37,376 nucleotides of DNA from Peptococcaceae bacterium (GCA_009782825.1 WRII01000027.1:1-37376); one strand, 5' to 3'; numbered from the stretch's first letter, positions 4,917 through 30,198 are shown. Translations and numbers: made by a program. Notes: generated by a model not told the origin, from the sequence alone.

Positions 4917-7733
4917 ATGGACTATAAAGACACATTAAATCTTCCGCAAACAAATTTCCCCATGCGCGGAAATTTGCCGGAACGGGAACCGGCTATCCTG
5001 AAAAAATGGGAAGAAAAGGACATCTACCGTCGCGTGCAGACCGCGCGTCACGGGTGTCCAAAATTCGTTCTGCATGATGGACCTCCCTATGCCAACGGGG
5101 CGCTGCATATGGGGCATGCTTTGAATAAAATTTTGAAGGATTTAATTATTCGGTACAAGACCATGGCCGGGTTTGACGCCCCTTATGTCCCGGGCTGGGA
5201 CACCCATGGCCTGCCCATCGAGCAGCAGGTGATCAAAACCTTGGGTGTCAACCGCAAAGCTGTGGATGTGGGCGAGTTTCGTAATCGTTGCCGGGATTAT
5301 GCTCTGGAGTATGTGGATATCCAAAGAGAACAGTTTAAGATGCTTGGGGTTCTTGGAGATTGGGAAAACCCTTATCTGACACTTACCCCGGAATATGAGG
5401 CGGAACAGATCGGCGTCTTTGGCGCCATGGCGCAAAAAGGGTTCATCTACAAGGGGCTGAAACCTGTCTACTGGTGCCCGTCCTGCGAAACAGCTTTGGC
5501 CGAGGCGGAGATTGAGTATGCGGATCGGCGCTCCATGGCGCTCTTTGTCAGGTTTCCTGTCAAAGAGGGTAAGGGAATTCTGCCTGATCAGCCAGACAGA
5601 TCTTGCTCCCTGGTCATCTGGACAACAACGCCCTGGACGCTGCCGGCCAACCTGGCCGTTTGTCTGCATCCAGAATATGAGTACGCCCTTGTCCGCGGAA
5701 ACGACAGTAACGGAATTTTAATGGTCGTAGCCTTAGATCTTTTGGACTCCTTGAGACCCCAATGGGGGATGGAGCTTCCTGTTGAAAAAACCTTCCTGGG
5801 CCGGGATCTGGAAGGCATCGTCTGCCAACACCCCTTATGTGACCGTAATTCCGTTGTCATTATGGGAGATCATGTGACGCTGGAGCAGGGAACCGGATGT
5901 GTACACACAGCCCCGGGACACGGTGTTGATGACTTCGCTGTCGGCCGCGCCAACGGATTGGAAGTTCTGTGTCCGGTAGACTTTCAAGGAAAATTCACCA
6001 CAGAAGGGGGGCCCTACGCCGGGCTCAAAGTCCGGGAAGCCGATTCCCGTATTGTAGAAGACCTGCAGCAGTCGGGCCAGCTGGTTCTATCAGAAAACGT
6101 AACACACAGTTATCCCCATTGCTGGCGCTGCAAGAACCCCATTATTTTCCGCGCTACAGAGCAGTGGTTTGCTTCTATTGATGGATTCCGCCAGGAAGCC
6201 TTGACGGAAATTGATAAGGTTCGCTTTATTCCGCCTTGGGGTCGGGACAGAATCTATAACATGATTGCTGATCGGGGAGATTGGTGTATTTCGCGGCAGA
6301 GAACCTGGGGCGTCCCTATTCCGATCTTTTATTGTGACAGCTGCGAAGGCGAGATTATCACACCGGAGACCATTGCTCATGTGCAGCAGCTCTTCCGCCA
6401 GGAAGGGTCGTCAGCATGGTTTGCGCGGTCAGCCGAGGAGCTTTTGCCGCCCAACTTCGTCTGTTCCTGCGGGGGCACAACCTTTCATAAGGAAACGGAC
6501 ATTATGGATGTCTGGTTTGATTCCGGCAGCAGCCATATGGCCATATTGCGGCGCCGTCCGGAACTCACCTGGCCGGCGGATATGTATCTGGAAGGCTCTG
6601 ATCAGCATCGGGGATGGTTCAATTCCTCACTGTCCACCTCCGTGGCTATCACCGGACAAGCGCCGTATAGGGCCGTTTTGACCCACGGATTTCTTGTGGA
6701 TGAGAAGGGTATCAAGGTGTCCAAATCCTTAGGCAACTATGTTGACCTGCTCAAAGTCATCAAAGACATGGGAGCCGATATCATCCGCCTTTGGGTGGCC
6801 GCTTCCGATTATCAGAATGATGTGGCTGTTTCTCCCCGCATTATGAAACAGATGACAGAGGCCTACCGCAAAATCCGCAATACTTTACGCTTCCTGTTAG
6901 GCAATCTCTATGATTTTAACCCTCAGGAACACGCGATTCCTTATGACGCCCTTACTGAAATTGACACATGGATTTTGGCCAAGCTGGCGGCTCTGATTGA
7001 CCGCTGCCGTCAAGCCTACGATGACTATGAATTCCATACCGTATATCATAGCCTCCATAATTTTTGCACGATTGAGCTGAGTTCGATCTATATGGACATC
7101 ACCAAAGACCGCCTGTATGTTGAGGACAAAACCTCCCTCCTGCGCCGCAGCGCTCAAACAGTGATGAATGAAACAGTGGAGGCTCTCTTGCTTCTGCTGG
7201 CTCCTATTTTGGCGTTCACCACGGATGAGGCTTGGGAGTATTTGCCTTCCGTTCGCTGTCGAAACTCTGGAGACTCACAAGAATCTGAGAATCAAATCAT
7301 CCAATCCGCCTTTATGCCTGAAGTGGATCCTCACTGGCGCAATCCGGATATCCTGGAAACTTGGGAAGCCATCCTGATGCTGCGCGGGGAAATCACCAAG
7401 GCTCTGGAAAGCGCCCGGCAAAACAAACAGATCACCCATTCTTTGACGGCTCACGTGCAATTGTATCCGTCCGATGCCGATCAGGAAGCGTTTTTGCGGG
7501 GTATCCCTCGCCTTCAGGATGTGGTCATCGTCTCTCAGCTGACAATTTATCCGGCCAAAACCCCGGCGCCTTCTCAATCGTGTCCGGCTCAGGACTTCCC
7601 TGGCCTGGTCATCGCTATTGATATGGCGCAAGGGGAAAAATGTGAGCGCTGTTGGATGTACAGCGTGGATGTGGGCCGCGATACGGCGCACCCGGATCTG
7701 TGTCCCCGGTGCTGTAAGGTTTTATCATCATAA
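4917..7733 (+). CDS. ileS: Isoleucine--tRNA ligase
   Basis: 938 aa. Canonical N-terminus [21 protein letters not shown]. The HIGH-type motif [14 protein letters not shown] and the KMSKS motif KVSKSLGN are present. A C-terminal zinc-binding Cys cluster (CERCWMY...CPRCC) is present. Confidence 0.97.
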
Positions 7734-7787
7734 ATTGCTGTAAGGTTTTATCATCATATTGCGATAAGGTCTTATCATCATAAATTA
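7710..7787. repeat. Three tandem ~25-bp copies of (A)TTGCTGTAAGGTTTTATCATCATA spanning the ileS stop codon
   Basis: Read directly: gctgtaaggttttatcatcataa / ttgctgtaaggttttatcatcata / ttgcgataaggtcttatcatcataa. Confidence 0.8.
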
Positions 7788-7801
7788 AAGGAGTATTTTC
7801 T

Positions 7802-8407
7802 ATGCAAAGTTTCAAGGTTCCTGTGGGAATTTCCAACCGGCACCTGCACCTGTCCGAGAAAGACTTAAAAACCCTTTTCGGATCTCAAGCTGAGCTCACT
7901 CATAAAAAGGCCTTGCGCCAGGAAGGCCAGTTTGCCTCCGAAGAAACAGTGACCCTTGCCGGTCCAAAAGGCTCTATGGAAGGCGTGCGTGTGCTTGGCC
8001 CTACCCGGGCGAAAACCCAAGTGGAGCTGACTCTGTCTGATGCCTACAAGCTGGGCATATCTCCGCTGCCGCCTGTGCGCGAGTCGGGGGATCTGGCCGG
8101 ATCTCCTGGTATCGAGATTGTGGGGCCGGTGGGGCGGATCACCCTGGATGAAGGTGTCATTGTCGCCAAGAGGCATGTTCATGTCCGTTCAGAAGACGCC
8201 GTTACCAAGGGAGTTAAGAACGGAGACAGTGTTTCTGTGCGGGTCAATTCAGAGCGGGGAGGGCTCTTCCTGGACGTTGTGATCCGTGTGGATCCAACCT
8301 TCAATCTGGAATTTCACATTGACACAGACGAAAGCAACGCGTTTTCTCTGCAAAATGGCGTTATGGCCGATGTGCTGCCCAATTGGGAAATGGAAAGCGG
8401 GAAGTGA
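7802..8407 (+). CDS. pduL: PduL-family phosphate acyltransferase (phosphate propanoyl/acetyl-transferase)
   Basis: 201 aa with two PduL repeats. Motifs VGISNRHLHLS, ETVTLAGPKG, VRVLGP, GVIVAKRHVHV and IRVDPTFNLEFHIDTDESNA are collinear with Salmonella PduL. The RBS aaaggag is present. Confidence 0.85.
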   Translation: MQSFKVPVGISNRHLHLSEKDLKTLFGSQAELTHKKALRQEGQFASEETVTLAGPKGSMEGVRVLGPTRAKTQVELTLSDAYKLGISPLPPVRESGDLAGSPGIEIVGPVGRITLDEGVIVAKRHVHVRSEDAVTKGVKNGDSVSVRVNSERGGLFLDVVIRVDPTFNLEFHIDTDESNAFSLQNGVMADVLPNWEMESGK

Positions 8408-26042: not shown

Positions 26043-27821
26043 ATGCAAGTTACTTATCAATACGCCGGTCCCTCCAAGCTTGTGCGGCATCCCGATCATG
26101 TTACTTTCGGCATGAGCCCGGATCTGTCGCGAGAAGAAAAGGTCTCCTTTGTGGGGAAGTTGAAAAATCCCCTCATCTTTCGGGACGCCATGCTCATGCT
26201 CAGAAAAATTATTGTGTCGGATGCCCGGCAGAAAAAAAAGGAACGCACAGAATTTTTCCAATGGCTGAACGGGGAAATTGAGAGACGCATACAAGAACAC
26301 GAACAGGATCTGCCCGGCGTCAGAGACGCCCTGCAGCAGGAGATCGAAGCTTTGCTCCAGGACATGGCCGGCAAAGACACGGCTCTGGCCCAGCTTGTCA
26401 AAACTCGCAAAAAGATTAGCCAAGAGATAGAAAAGTCCGACGCCTGGCGCGACTATCATAAGCTGGAAAAAAAGTTTTGGCAGTTTATCCGCGACCGGGA
26501 CAGAGACTTATGGTTCGTCCTTGATCCTGTGATCACGGTGCATCCGGATCAAGTTTCCTTTGAAGCCTTCTCTCTGGATGAATCCATATACGGCTGTCTG
26601 TCTATAGGCATGGATGAATTTGATCTGCGCGCCGAACCCAAGCTGGGTACGACCAACATTGACTTTTCCGCCAAACTCGCTCAGGAAATGGAACGGTTTC
26701 GCACCTACTCAGATGTGGAACTCTCTGTGAACCCGGAAGGATTCACCGTAGATACAGGCATCCTTCCCGACTATATCGAAAAGAAAATTGACCTGCCTGA
26801 TACATGGATCAAAGGCTTCACCCAAGTTTCGTCAGCGGCCAATCTAAGCGGCGCAGAGATCTCTTTGACTCCGGTGGATATGTATGACATCTGTTCCTTT
26901 TTGCGGCGGCATAAGGCCCAAAAGAGCCCCAGGCATATGACATGGATTCTGAAAAAAGACCACCCTGTAACAGTACGCTTTGAGCCCTTTGGTCACGAAC
27001 TCACGTTACAGGCGATTTACCACGGCGACAAGGACAGGGAAGAAAAAATATGGGGCCGGCAGCGCTGGCTTGTGGCTGAGAAGCTTCTCCCTCTGGCCAA
27101 GTCCTTTACTGTCAAGCTATTGGGGTTTGGTATGCCTCAGTTTATCATCGCAGATTTAGGAAATATGAACATGACCATCGGCTTTTCTTCCTGGTCCGCC
27201 AACGACTGGGTTAAAGGAACAGCTTTTAACATTATGAGCGGCTTCATCGGAGAAGGGAACTACAGAGAAGTTTATGCCCTGCTCAAACAAAAACGCTCCA
27301 TGACGGTAAACGACATCTGCAGCCAGATCCAATCCCGCACACGAAACACAACCCTTTCCGGTATCGGCAGCCTGCTCAAGCGGGGAGAAGGGTACTTTGA
27401 CGCTGTCAATACCCAGGTACGCTTCCGCCAGCTGTGCAATACCCCCATCCCGCAGGAACTGTACGCCACAACGGAAGCGGAACTCCGAGTGACAAGGTGT
27501 TTGGATGCCGGGATGGATCTTTTCCGTATGAGGCTGTCAGAAAAGAATGAGTATGTTTTTACGAATTCCTATTTGGACAGAGATCCGCTGCGAACACAGC
27601 ACAAGGCACAGCATGAGACAGAAATCATGATTGATGAAGACGGTCAGATTGGTCGTGTGGTATGCTCATGCAAAGAATTCAAAAGAGGGCCGCGCAATAT
27701 CTCCGCACCATGCCCCCATATTTTAGCCCTATACATCACCGCCGCGAAATTCACCCGGCTCAGGCTGGAGCAGGGGAGAGTGTATGGGATCAATGATATT
27801 ATGGAGGTGGTGCTATCATGA
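26043..27821 (+). CDS. 592-aa protein with a C-terminal SWIM-type zinc finger. Second gene of the RT-associated operon
   Basis: RBS gggagg. The C-terminal VVCSCKEFKRGPRNISAPCPHILALY gives the CxC...CxH SWIM pattern. Its stop overlaps the RT start (ATGA). Confidence 0.65.
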   Translation: MQVTYQYAGPSKLVRHPDHVTFGMSPDLSREEKVSFVGKLKNPLIFRDAMLMLRKIIVSDARQKKKERTEFFQWLNGEIERRIQEHEQDLPGVRDALQQEIEALLQDMAGKDTALAQLVKTRKKISQEIEKSDAWRDYHKLEKKFWQFIRDRDRDLWFVLDPVITVHPDQVSFEAFSLDESIYGCLSIGMDEFDLRAEPKLGTTNIDFSAKLAQEMERFRTYSDVELSVNPEGFTVDTGILPDYIEKKIDLPDTWIKGFTQVSSAANLSGAEISLTPVDMYDICSFLRRHKAQKSPRHMTWILKKDHPVTVRFEPFGHELTLQAIYHGDKDREEKIWGRQRWLVAEKLLPLAKSFTVKLLGFGMPQFIIADLGNMNMTIGFSSWSANDWVKGTAFNIMSGFIGEGNYREVYALLKQKRSMTVNDICSQIQSRTRNTTLSGIGSLLKRGEGYFDAVNTQVRFRQLCNTPIPQELYATTEAELRVTRCLDAGMDLFRMRLSEKNEYVFTNSYLDRDPLRTQHKAQHETEIMIDEDGQIGRVVCSCKEFKRGPRNISAPCPHILALYITAAKFTRLRLEQGRVYGINDIMEVVLS

Positions 27822-29386
27822 GACAAGAACACTATCGAGCTGTCCATGATATGGGAAAAAAAGAATATACCCTGCTCAAAATGCAGGAATACGGCTTTTG
27901 GCCGGAAGATCTGCCGACGCCCTATGAAAGGCAAGCGCACGAATCCGCGCAAGACTACAACAAGAGACAAGCCCTCTTCAAGGAATATGAGCAGATCGCT
28001 GGTCGGATAGCCAATTTGTATAGTGAGAAAGACGAGATCAATACCCGGTTAAAAGACTTACGGAAACACTATGATCAGACATGGGATTATGAAAAGATAA
28101 GGAAAGACGTCGCCCAAACCATCCTGCGGGAATCCCTGGCCCGGCGCGCGGAAAGAAAACGACAGAAAGAACTTCAGAAGCAAAGGATCTCTGAAGCCTG
28201 GCAAAAACGCAAGGCCGAAAGTATTGTTTTCATTGGCCGGGGCTATTCGGGGCTGCTCTCTGATAAGACCGGCGACGCGGACAAACTGCGCGCCTCCAAT
28301 CTGCCCCTCATCCCTGACGATAAAGCCCTAGCCGCTCTTCTTGGCCTTACGTATACAGAGCTGCGTTTTTTGGCCTATCACAGAGATGTGGTTGTGGCCG
28401 ATCATTACCACCGGTACGAGATTCCTAAAAAGAATGGCGGACACAGACGTATTGCCGCGCCAAAGCCGCTGCTCAAAAAGACCCAAAGAAAGATCTTGGA
28501 ACTCATATTGGAGAAAATAGATATCTCGGAACAGGCTCACGGGTTCGTGAAAGGGCGATCTGTAGTCACCGGCGCTCAAGCTCATAAAACTCATATCGGA
28601 AATCCTTCGCTGCTGATCACTCTCGACCTGGAAGATTTCTTTCCCACCATTACTTTTGAGCGCGTCCGAGGCCTTTTTAAATCTTTTGGCTATTCAGGGT
28701 ATATTGCCTCACTTTTGGCTATGATATGCACCTATTGCGAACGCGTGCCCATTGAAGTCAAAGGTCAGATCAAATATGTACGATCCTCTGAGAGAATCCT
28801 CCCGCAAGGATCCCCGGCCAGCCCCATGATTACAAATATCATCTGCCGCAGGATGGACGCCAAGATCAGAGACCTCGCCACGAACTTCCCGTCCGGCCAC
28901 CCTGTCCAGTCCGGTCACCCTGCCCAGTCCGGTCACCCTGTCCAATCCGGTCACCCTGCCCAAACAAATTCCCCTGCGAGCTGCCGGTGTACATATACAC
29001 GGTACGCCGATGATATGAGCTTTAGCTTTGACAGCACCTTGCCCATAGACGCGGAACACATCAAAAAATTCATCCACCAAATTCAGCGCATCGTCCACAG
29101 CGAAGGTTTTAAAATTAATAAACAGAAAACACGCTATCTAAAACACAACAACAGACAAGCCGTCACTGGCATTGTCATTAATAATGAAGAGATCTCTGTT
29201 CCCAAGGTATGGCTCAAAAAGATGAGAGCGGCCCTCTATAATGCCAAAAAGCAAAAAGAACAGGGGACTCTTGATCCCGGCAAAATACATGAGATAGCCG
29301 GCATGGCCTGCTGGTTGAACTCCGTGAATCCCACCAAGTACAAAAAAATGATTGATGAAGCCAAGGATTTGCAAAGCTCGTCTTAG
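27818..29386 (+). CDS. Reverse transcriptase of retron/retron-like type with a ~190-aa basic coiled-coil N-terminal extension
   Basis: RT motifs are in order: IPKKNGGHRRIAAP (1/2), GFVKGRSVVTGAQAH (retron-type NAxxH-like box), LDLEDFFPTI (A), LPQGSPASPMITN (B'), YTRYADDMSF (C), and NRQAVTGIVINNEE plus LKKMRAALYNAK (the retron-specific RxVTG(L/I)xVN thumb motif). A 4x SGHP(V/A)Q repeat insertion sits between motifs B' and C. The RBS ggaggtgg is present. Confidence 0.85.
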   Translation: MRQEHYRAVHDMGKKEYTLLKMQEYGFWPEDLPTPYERQAHESAQDYNKRQALFKEYEQIAGRIANLYSEKDEINTRLKDLRKHYDQTWDYEKIRKDVAQTILRESLARRAERKRQKELQKQRISEAWQKRKAESIVFIGRGYSGLLSDKTGDADKLRASNLPLIPDDKALAALLGLTYTELRFLAYHRDVVVADHYHRYEIPKKNGGHRRIAAPKPLLKKTQRKILELILEKIDISEQAHGFVKGRSVVTGAQAHKTHIGNPSLLITLDLEDFFPTITFERVRGLFKSFGYSGYIASLLAMICTYCERVPIEVKGQIKYVRSSERILPQGSPASPMITNIICRRMDAKIRDLATNFPSGHPVQSGHPAQSGHPVQSGHPAQTNSPASCRCTYTRYADDMSFSFDSTLPIDAEHIKKFIHQIQRIVHSEGFKINKQKTRYLKHNNRQAVTGIVINNEEISVPKVWLKKMRAALYNAKKQKEQGTLDPGKIHEIAGMACWLNSVNPTKYKKMIDEAKDLQSSS

Positions 29387-29401
29387 AATGTTAAAATTAG
29401 G

Positions 29402-29600
29402 GCATAGGTTTTTTGGCAGGTATGCTATGGTGTTGCGCCATAGTTGAGGAATGTTATGTATACATCACCAAATTGTGCGCAATTCGCTTCGCATCGACTA
29501 ATGGCGCCTTAAAATCTATCCTACGGTGTAGGCGCCATTAGTCGAGCTCCGCTGAAGTGTCACAATTAGATGAGAGATCTTTTAGCAAAAAACCTATGAG
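29402..29600 (+). ncRNA. Candidate retron msr/msd-like non-coding RNA downstream of the RT. The a1-like arm is 29403-29416 and the a2-like arm 29585-29598. The central 15-bp perfect hairpin is 29494-29508 / 29531-29545
   Basis: cataggttttttgg pairs with gcaaaaaacctatg (12 contiguous bp plus 2). Between the arms, tcgactaatggcgcc-N22-ggcgccattagtcga forms a perfect 15-bp stem. A further hairpin is ctatggtgttgcgccatag. No ORF spans the region. Confidence 0.35.
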
Positions 29601-29760
29601 ATAGGGGCTGTTGCCAGCCTCTTCAATCATTGATGAAGGTCTGAGGATATGATGGAAAAATTGAGAGATCTGCCCTTTCAGGTCATTGTCACGGATCAAC
29701 AGAAAGCAGACATTGAGGATGACTCTGAAGATGGAGAAGAGGTTAATTTGGAGGGGTTTG

Positions 29761-30198
29761 ATGTGGAAATATGAAGCAGTCAATGAATACAATACAATCA
29801 GCTTGCATGATTGCTATATAATGCATATTGATGAGCAAGATGGCAATATTATATTCAGCTTTGAACGTGGATTTTGGATTATTGAAACCAACAACAAAAA
29901 CCCTTTTCACAAGACTTTAAGAACTGAGGATGGGGCTAAACTCACACTCACAAATGCTAATTGTGTTGAAATTCTTTTCGAAGATAAAAATATCAGTTGG
30001 CATGAGTTTTGTCGAAGAATTAATGCTGACGAATGGAAATTTGAGTGTATTCATGATAATTATACAGCAAATCAATGCGCCTACGAAGGTTGGATTTACT
30101 TTGACAAAGAACCTTATCATATGGAGTTAGGCCTAAAGTTTACTTTTGGTGACGCAATATACCATTGGAATGAAATCTGTGAGAATAGGCCGTGGTAG
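29761..30198 (+). CDS. Hypothetical 145-aa Cys/His/Trp-rich protein in an AT-rich tail
   Basis: Strong RBS tggagggg 4-6 nt before the ATG at 29761. The annotated ORF from 29686 has earlier ATGs without an RBS. Local GC is much lower than in surrounding genes. No recognisable motif. Confidence 0.4.
   Translation: MWKYEAVNEYNTISLHDCYIMHIDEQDGNIIFSFERGFWIIETNNKNPFHKTLRTEDGAKLTLTNANCVEILFEDKNISWHEFCRRINADEWKFECIHDNYTANQCAYEGWIYFDKEPYHMELGLKFTFGDAIYHWNEICENRPW

Follow-up and report, generated by a model that had tools for sequence, protein, structure and literature searches.

The myxobacterial retrons Mx162, Mx65, Sa163 and Ne144 are classic producers of branched msDNA. The msr-msd region of Mx162 is said to lie upstream of its reverse transcriptase (RT) gene. 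In the classification of Mestre et al. 2020 (PMC7736814), which we follow for retron type names, these four elements belong to type XIII, which corresponds to RT clade 10, and within that clade separate ncRNA structure families are distinguished for Firmicutes, Mx162, Mx65 and Ne144. The position of the type XIII Firmicutes ncRNA is stated neither in the text of that paper nor in the legend of its Figure 5. We found no functional test of a type XIII system in the literature searched, and its role is not established there.

The ncRNA family treated here is already known: it was predicted in 2020 (PMC7736814) and one member was validated in 2024 (PMC10849725). That member, "Retron Terminal 1609" or "Mestre-1609", comes from Clostridium chromiireducens (clade 10, type XIII; Khan 2024, PMC10849725 supplement 3); the entry derives from the predictions of Mestre et al. 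2020 (PMC7736814) and was tested in the census (PMC10849725). It has a 197-nt ncRNA and a sequenced RT-DNA of 131 nt, and it produced 2.0x as much RT-DNA as Eco1 by PAGE (PMC10849725). Its editing in human cells was 25.9x that of Eco1 (PMC10849725 supplement). We mapped the census ncRNA onto the corresponding locus of C. chromiireducens DSM 23318 (L022), where it occupies 7712-7908 on the + strand, which is the RT strand, and begins 164 nt after the RT stop; the downstream position of this ncRNA follows from that mapping. The Mestre-1609 RT-DNA is the complement of ncRNA positions 54-183, and its 5' end lies at the base immediately 5' to the conserved G in front of a2.

Here we examine a 37,376-nt stretch of DNA from an uncultured Peptococcaceae bacterium (GCA_009782825.1 WRII01000027.1:1-37376), referred to as a whole as the window. 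With a probability of roughly 93%, we assign 29403-29598 on the + strand as the msr-msd ncRNA gene of the type XIII retron encoded just upstream. This element is 70.2% identical to the Mestre-1609 ncRNA over its whole length and is a new, somewhat divergent member of the family, in a different family of Bacillota. The evidence from the window consists of homology, structure, covariation and gene context, and it is complemented by the RT-DNA production and end points reported for the 70%-identical homologue Mestre-1609 (PMC10849725).

The retron operon and the element downstream of it

Three + strand genes upstream of 29403-29598, encoding a WGR/HEAT protein, a SWIM protein and an RT, make up a type XIII retron (Table 1). 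RT_XIII was the top PADLOC match for the RT, Pfam identified RVT_1 (E 6e-24), and the protein is 100% identical to a deposited RT labelled "MAG: Peptococcaceae bacterium". Its motifs include YADD, AVTGIVINN (the VTG motif) and TGAQAH, the last being the form taken here by the NAxxH motif. The Pfam SWIM match of the 592-aa protein was weak. SWIM relatives share 55-70% identity with the window's protein, and wherever a related locus reaches that far, a WGR gene lies immediately 5' of its SWIM gene. In the window, the end of the SWIM gene and the RT gene's start overlap by 4 nt, and the RT ORF is full length, as are the two accessory ORFs. The gene order WGR-SWIM-RT and the short junctions are kept in every related locus covering the whole operon, so there is no space for an ncRNA between the genes. 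The type XIII features are therefore present, namely a clade-10 RT with YADD and VTG and a linked SWIM gene preceded by a WGR / HEAT-ARM gene.

The RT gene itself contains an 18-nt tandem repeat at 28887-28962 (+; 4.2 copies, 89% matches) that encodes SGHP[V/A]Q about four times, roughly at amino acids 358-381 and about 15 residues before YADD. This repeat accounts for most of the extra length of the window's RT, which has 522 aa compared with about 490 in relatives. Some RTs of the clade carry C-terminal fusions, to TerD (PF02342) in P0030, P0050, P0058 and P0071 and to BRCT (PF00533) in P0066. In L013 and L073 the RT reading frame is about 600 nt longer, and the ncRNA is still found 3' of the longer gene.

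Table 1. Coordinates of the retron genes and of the elements of the ncRNA, counted from the first letter of the window.
Feature	Position	Strand	Basis
Accessory gene 1, WGR-like / HEAT-ARM repeat protein, 953 aa	23181..26042	+	PADLOC WGR_XIII, E 5.3e-16
Accessory gene 2, SWIM zinc-finger protein, 592 aa	26043..27821	+	PADLOC SWIM_XIII, E 4.2e-174
Retron RT, 522 aa, clade 10 / type XIII	27818..29386	+	PADLOC RT_XIII, E 5.4e-151
Promoter-like site TTGCAA-N17-TGtTAAAAT	29369..29397	+	Consensus scan
Complete retron ncRNA (msr-msd), a1 through a2, 196 nt (probable)	29403..29598	+	Model R2 and homology
a1 arm (CATAGGTTTTTTG), pairs with a2	29403..29415	+	13 bp perfect
Candidate branching (priming) G, directly 3' of a1	29416	+	G in 87/88 copies; equivalent to G14 of Mestre-1609
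msr hairpin (GCTATGGTG-TTG-CGCCATAGT), 9-bp stem 29424-29432 / 29436-29444	29424..29444	+	MFE structure
Predicted msd template, 129 nt	29456..29584	+	Alignment transfer from Mestre-1609 RT-DNA
Long msd stem-loop: conserved basal stem, variable distal stem, conserved apical loop	29471..29567	+	MFE and RNAalifold consensus
Distal msd stem (TCGACTAATGGCGCCT / AGGCGCCATTAGTCGA), 29494-29509 / 29530-29545	29494..29545	+	16 bp perfect, 20-nt loop
G opposing the branching G, directly 5' of a2	29585	+	G in 86/88 copies
a2 arm (CAAAAAACCTATG), pairs with a1	29586..29598	+	13 bp perfect and covariation

A first-pass annotation, made from the sequence alone, had proposed that the interval 3' of the RT holds a retron msr/msd RNA whose a1/a2 arms flank a long msd hairpin. 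An independent covariance model, covariation and the validated homologue all uphold that proposal, with some changes to its outline. There is indeed a structured element within the annotated interval (29387-29760), but it begins 16 nt after the RT stop and ends at 29598. The remainder, 29599-29760, lies outside it; a weak hairpin and a possible 41-aa ORF are found there, and the next gene begins with the ATG at 29761. The outer arms are 13 nt long and 100% complementary, with 170 nt between them. They had been drawn as 14-nt repeats, off by one, around much the same length of sequence; what was taken for a 14th pair is an unpaired G·G opposition in which G29416 faces G29585. The inner perfect stem is likewise present, with 16 bp and a 20-nt loop rather than 15 bp and 22 nt. 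The small hairpin ctatgg-N7-ccatag turned out to be part of the conserved msr hairpin. Another, cctat-gag-atagg (29594-29606), does exist but is probably incidental: it overlaps a2, and the sequence 3' of a2 varies between the loci compared.

The 196-nt RNA has a minimum free energy of -76.1 kcal/mol, compared with -48.3 ± 4.2 for shuffled sequences (z = -6.6), and none of 200 shuffles folded as well. The fold also includes a weak middle hairpin and a small hairpin before a2. The element thus combines the features of a retron ncRNA: a1/a2, opposed conserved Gs, an msr hairpin and a long msd stem-loop, next to a retron RT. The msr hairpin is likely to be the element recognised by the RT.

The interval had also been described as free of ORFs. 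This is roughly correct, except that a 42-aa ORF with a TTG start (29413-29541) overlaps the element mechanically. We rejected it as a gene because variation in this stretch follows base-pairing, as expected for RNA; for the small-protein reading, the stop-free length is uninformative in a 200-nt element.

The apical loop of the msd stem (about 29510-29529), at the tip of the variable stem, is conserved, with the consensus AAAA-n-CGATCCTTCGGTTA; at A29518 and T29522, conservation is 97% or higher across 88 copies. The ncRNA family therefore combines a conserved tip with a hypervariable stem.

The ncRNA is bracketed by a 10-nt direct repeat, ATTGATGAAG, at 29351-29360 and 29629-29638. This sequence occurs three times in the window, compared with 0.23 expected, the third copy being at 27630. 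A 15-nt inverted repeat (87%) also spans the ncRNA, at 29347-29361 / 29617-29631. The ATTGATGAAG copy 3' of the ncRNA reads I-I-D-E-G-L-R-I-stop, which resembles M-I-D-E-A-K at the RT C-terminus. The flanking repeats may be the footprint of an insertion of the ncRNA cassette into the 3' end of the RT gene, or they may be due to chance.

Conservation and covariation in related loci

Relatives were collected with an RT-alignment scan that kept one genome per species, which yielded 80 loci. In the Clostridium-type loci, the region 3' of the RT contains inverted repeats of 9-16 nt, mostly 169-181 nt apart (commonest, 171); the stem between them, of 11 bp, corresponds in relative position to the window's. 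The arm pairs differ between loci in a compensatory way (TAGATTTCTTG/CAAGAAATCTA, ACAGTTCCCTTG/CAAGGGAACTGT and TAAATTTCCTG/CAGGAAATTTA, with TAGGTTTTTTG/CAAAAAACCTA in the window). MAFFT, which is blind to structure, aligned 20 copies end to end with a mean column identity of 77%. From this alignment RNAalifold derived 53 pairs, 33 of them compensatory.

A covariance model built from the 20-copy alignment gave 88 matches in 64 of the 80 loci, plus one in the window. Over the 88 copies, 93.7% of cells were paired, compared with 32-44% when the partners were slid by 1-3 columns, and 43 of the 53 pairs had changed on both sides. The covariation score was 0.611, versus at most 0.107 for slid partners, and the observed values were reached in 0 of 500 shuffles. 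Because the 88-copy alignment was fitted to the model, we rely on it jointly with the MAFFT-based result. Folding and covariance analysis of homologous loci had been suggested in the first-pass annotation as a check on its reading, and both outcomes (the z-score of -6.6 and the 43 compensatory pairs) speak for it.

Compensatory changes were distributed over the length of the element. The a1/a2 helix had them at 12 of its 13 pairs, with 98% of cells paired. The msr helix was 100% paired, with 4 of 8 pairs compensatory and many G-U pairs. Helices 3-6 of the msd stem-loop contributed 27 pairs with compensatory changes. The distal stem (helices 5 and 6) is where the family varies most, with a between-copy identity of 0.33-0.43 versus 0.66-0.81 elsewhere; all 16 of its pairs vary on both sides and are still 93-95% paired. 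G-U cells outnumbered A-C cells (377 vs 159), which favours an RNA read from the + strand; at one pair, 86 of 87 distinct copies have G-U. Conservation also bears on the priming position. The GG at 29419-29420, put forward in the first-pass annotation as the branching G, is not conserved, since the window reads GCAGGT there while most relatives read GCCTTT; the near-invariant G is G29416.

A second model, R2, drew on 25 relatives, among them the locus of the validated Mestre-1609 RNA, and left the window out. Its match to the window, at 29400-29601 (+), scored 182.7 bits (E 1.4e-40), spanned the entire model (1-203 of 203) and was the sole one in these 37 kb. The element is thus recognised by a model of type XIII "Firmicutes" family relatives that excludes the query. 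Rfam returned only noise, both in a gathering search of the whole window and in an E-value search of 29350-29660, which is explained by the absence of the family from Rfam.

The family was also sought beyond the RT loci. A metagenome scan with the pattern AAGTGTCANAACN{15,40}GTTAGCA gave no model-scoring sequence among 80 of the 120 matched stretches; the matches look like chance, the pattern being too loose. A scan of viral contigs with GCTRAAGTGTCANAAC gave no model match among 80 of the 93 matched stretches and so no evidence of a phage-borne ncRNA.

Not every related operon has the RNA at its side. A homologous ncRNA was found with the RT in 64 of the 80 loci, and in six loci with an intact WGR-SWIM-RT operon (L004, L038, L039, L053, L063 and L079) none was detected within 6 kb. 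In five of these about 6 kb was available on both sides of the RT, and in L053 the upstream side extended over 4.9 kb. A model search with filters off, run on seven loci that had given no match, found nothing real. The six relatives with full flanks indicate that the RNA is not always adjacent; in these loci it may be farther away or lost.

Five contigs assigned by binning to Asgard archaea (MAGs of Hermod-, Prometh- and Thorarchaeota; L016, L021, L046, L059 and L078) carry the retron together with the ncRNA, and their RTs are 52-55% identical to the window's. This could reflect horizontal transfer or binning error.

Placement, transcription and alternative explanations

The first-pass annotation considered a position downstream of the RT to be unusual. 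This holds for retrons in general, but within the clade 3' placement is the norm for the Clostridium branch: all ncRNAs detected in Clostridium-type loci are encoded downstream of the RT and on its strand, usually with a start 16-280 nt beyond the stop codon. L046 and L065 are exceptions in distance, the ncRNA of L046 lying 3.2 kb downstream of the RT. The 16-nt gap in the window is the shortest among the downstream-type loci examined.

In 27 of 30 downstream-type loci, the window included, a promoter-like site scoring at least 9 of 12 was found within 70 nt before the ncRNA, and in 26 of 30 a terminator-like hairpin follows a2. The promoter-like site in Clostridium loci is typically TTGAAT-N17-TG-TATAAT and mostly lies 19-32 nt before a1. 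With its own promoter-like site and terminator-like hairpin, the ncRNA looks like a transcription unit of its own in downstream-type relatives. The window departs somewhat from this arrangement. Its promoter-like site overlaps the RT stop codon and ends 5 nt before a1; judged by its match to the consensus, it is a possible promoter of the ncRNA. No clear intrinsic terminator was found after a2 in the window. Since the promoter-like site is 5 nt from a1 rather than 19-32, transcription may be organised differently here.

In Lachnospiraceae/Eubacterium-type loci the ncRNA is found on the other strand, upstream of the WGR gene and divergent from it (L025-L071 and L080, at about 200-1300 on the minus strand; L294, 2966-3168 and 4366-4569 on the minus strand). 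Being 3' of the RT in some loci and divergent, 5' of the operon, in others, the ncRNA behaves as a cassette able to change position.

These observations can be weighed against several other explanations of the region. The first-pass annotation named one alternative, a Rho-independent terminator cluster. In the form considered here, such terminators or attenuators would close the WGR-SWIM-RT operon and yield no RNA product of their own, which would suit a region with several stable hairpins directly after the stop codon of the last gene. We consider it very unlikely. No + strand hairpin in 29403-29598 is followed by a T-run, a terminator scan found none, and the conservation of the 200-nt architecture, with compensatory changes, extends from end to end. 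Moreover, the Lachnospiraceae-type RNA, upstream of the operon and on the opposite strand, is unable to terminate it, the Clostridium-type ncRNA has its own promoter-like site and terminator-like hairpin, and the homologue Mestre-1609 makes RT-DNA. We give as little weight to a cis-regulatory leader or small RNA controlling the two overlapping ORFs 3' of the element, at 29649-29774 (+; 41 aa, acidic) and 29761-30198 (+; 145 aa). Both are on the same strand as the element, downstream of it, and both have plausible ribosome-binding sites, which in the 145-aa ORF is GGAGGGG. However, neither had a significant Pfam or PADLOC match or a homologue adjoining any of the 80 related RT loci, and they are probably unrelated neighbours. 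The RNA itself is found with the RT in 64 of the 80 loci, in varying positions and on one strand or the other. A miniature transposable element, in which the 13-bp arms would be terminal inverted repeats acting at the DNA level, seems hardly credible. The inverted repeats enclose about 170 bp, ATTGATGAAG occurs on both sides (29351 and 29629), and the SWIM protein family has been compared with transposases (PMC7736814). Yet these direct repeats do not adjoin the arms, from which they are separated by 43 and 30 nt; the element is present in a single copy in the window, and all copies found lie within type XIII operon flanks. The internal helices also covary as well as the arms do, and strand-specific G-U pairs are frequent, including the nearly invariant one described above. 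Taken together, the length-wide covariation, the strand-specific wobble pairs, the exclusive link to the retron at changing positions and strands, and the non-conserved downstream ORFs contradict all three of these explanations.

A retron ncRNA by descent could also be inactive or decaying in this organism, so that no msDNA is made. The unusual promoter geometry, the lack of a clear terminator and the extra 18-nt tandem-repeat insertion in the RT would be compatible with decay. On the other hand, the window keeps all 32 positions whose conservation in the family is 97% or more, every helix of its element is fully paired, and the full-length RT, with the catalytic YADD, and the two full-length accessory ORFs show no sign of it. 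We regard decay as improbable and favour an intact msr-msd gene.

In nine of the 64 ncRNA-bearing loci the ncRNA is present in 2 to at least 6 copies, mostly head-to-tail. On the minus strand such multi-copy sets occur in L030 (1-1316), L071 (53-1194), L049 (137-1178) and L034 (489-1150); the others are L047, L044, L042, L021 (7468-8191, +) and L059 (2423-2895, +). Tandem Repeats Finder (TRF) reported a period of 223 nt and 5.9 copies for the L030 array, which runs to the edge of the locus. Identity among array copies is about 81% in a1, msr, basal msd and a2, and about 33% in the distal msd stem. This last value is about random, and the distal stems stay self-complementary despite it. When we searched the literature for natural retron ncRNA arrays of several copies or for hypervariable msd stems, we met only engineered "multitron" arrays; that no description of natural ones turned up is weak evidence. 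We tentatively suggest, as a possibility we would not bet on at even odds, that the ncRNA is a movable, separately transcribed cassette whose distal msd stem (29494-29545 in the window) is a diversifying specificity module. If so, one RT would make a repertoire of msDNAs, and the single, unique stem of the window would define what its system senses or binds. The more interesting lead is the multi-copy arrays with divergent msd stems, which are found in relatives and not in the window.

Predicted msDNA and comparison with known retrons

Alignment to Mestre-1609 allows the product of the window's element to be predicted. By homology, the branching G would be G29416, reverse transcription is predicted to start at A29584, and the predicted msDNA, of about 129 nt, would be the reverse complement of 29456-29584. 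This DNA is predicted to fold as a long hairpin (-29 kcal/mol, z = -6.2). In the mechanism that we propose, the RNA would be transcribed by read-through from the operon or from the promoter-like site at 29369-29397. Its ends would pair, a1 (29403-29415) with a2 (29586-29598), which would place G29416 opposite G29585, and the RT would recognise the msr hairpin (29424-29444). The RT would then prime from the 2'-OH of G29416 and copy from A29584 back to about A29456. The expected product is a branched msDNA of about 129 nt, forming a long hairpin tipped by the 16-bp stem. That the same RT-DNA chemistry operates in the window's organism, and with these exact ends, is what we infer by analogy with Mestre-1609. 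By analogy with other retron defence systems, the msDNA-RT complex presumably holds or licenses the SWIM and WGR/HEAT effectors.

The assignment adds an msr-msd gene, with a predicted priming G and predicted msDNA ends, to an otherwise complete type XIII retron of an uncultured Peptococcaceae. Pipelines that search only upstream of retron RTs would miss the Clostridium-type ncRNA. The one family member tested made RT-DNA efficiently and edited strongly in human cells (25.9x Eco1; PMC10849725), so new members with different msd stems are candidate editing scaffolds.

Among known systems, Mestre-1609 is the closest. Like the window's element, it has the order a1, G, msr hairpin, long msd stem, G and a2, and its ncRNA lies downstream of the RT, on the RT strand, next to a WGR-SWIM-RT operon. 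The two differ in host (Clostridium vs a Peptococcaceae MAG), in the start of the ncRNA (164 nt vs 16 nt after the RT stop) and in the distance of the promoter-like site from a1 (25 nt vs 5 nt), and the window is without a clear terminator. Their distal msd stem sequences are unrelated, with ACCAATACTGTGCGCT in Mestre-1609 and TCGACTAATGGCGCCT in the window.

The myxobacterial elements Mx162, Mx65, Sa163 and Ne144 (Retron-Mxa1, Mxa2, Sau1 and Nex2) share with the window the retron type, the RT clade and the SWIM and HEAT/ARM partners (PMC7736814). Their ncRNAs are set apart from the window's by the family listing of Mestre et al. 2020 (PMC7736814). Retron-Eco1 (Ec86) resembles the window's element in general architecture, with a1/a2, two opposing Gs, one or more short msr hairpins, a long msd hairpin and an adjacent RT (PMC7736814). 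In contrast to Eco1, the window's ncRNA follows the RT, and in the window's relatives it forms what looks like a separate transcription unit. The effector set is also different, and there is no detectable sequence similarity between the two (no Rfam match).
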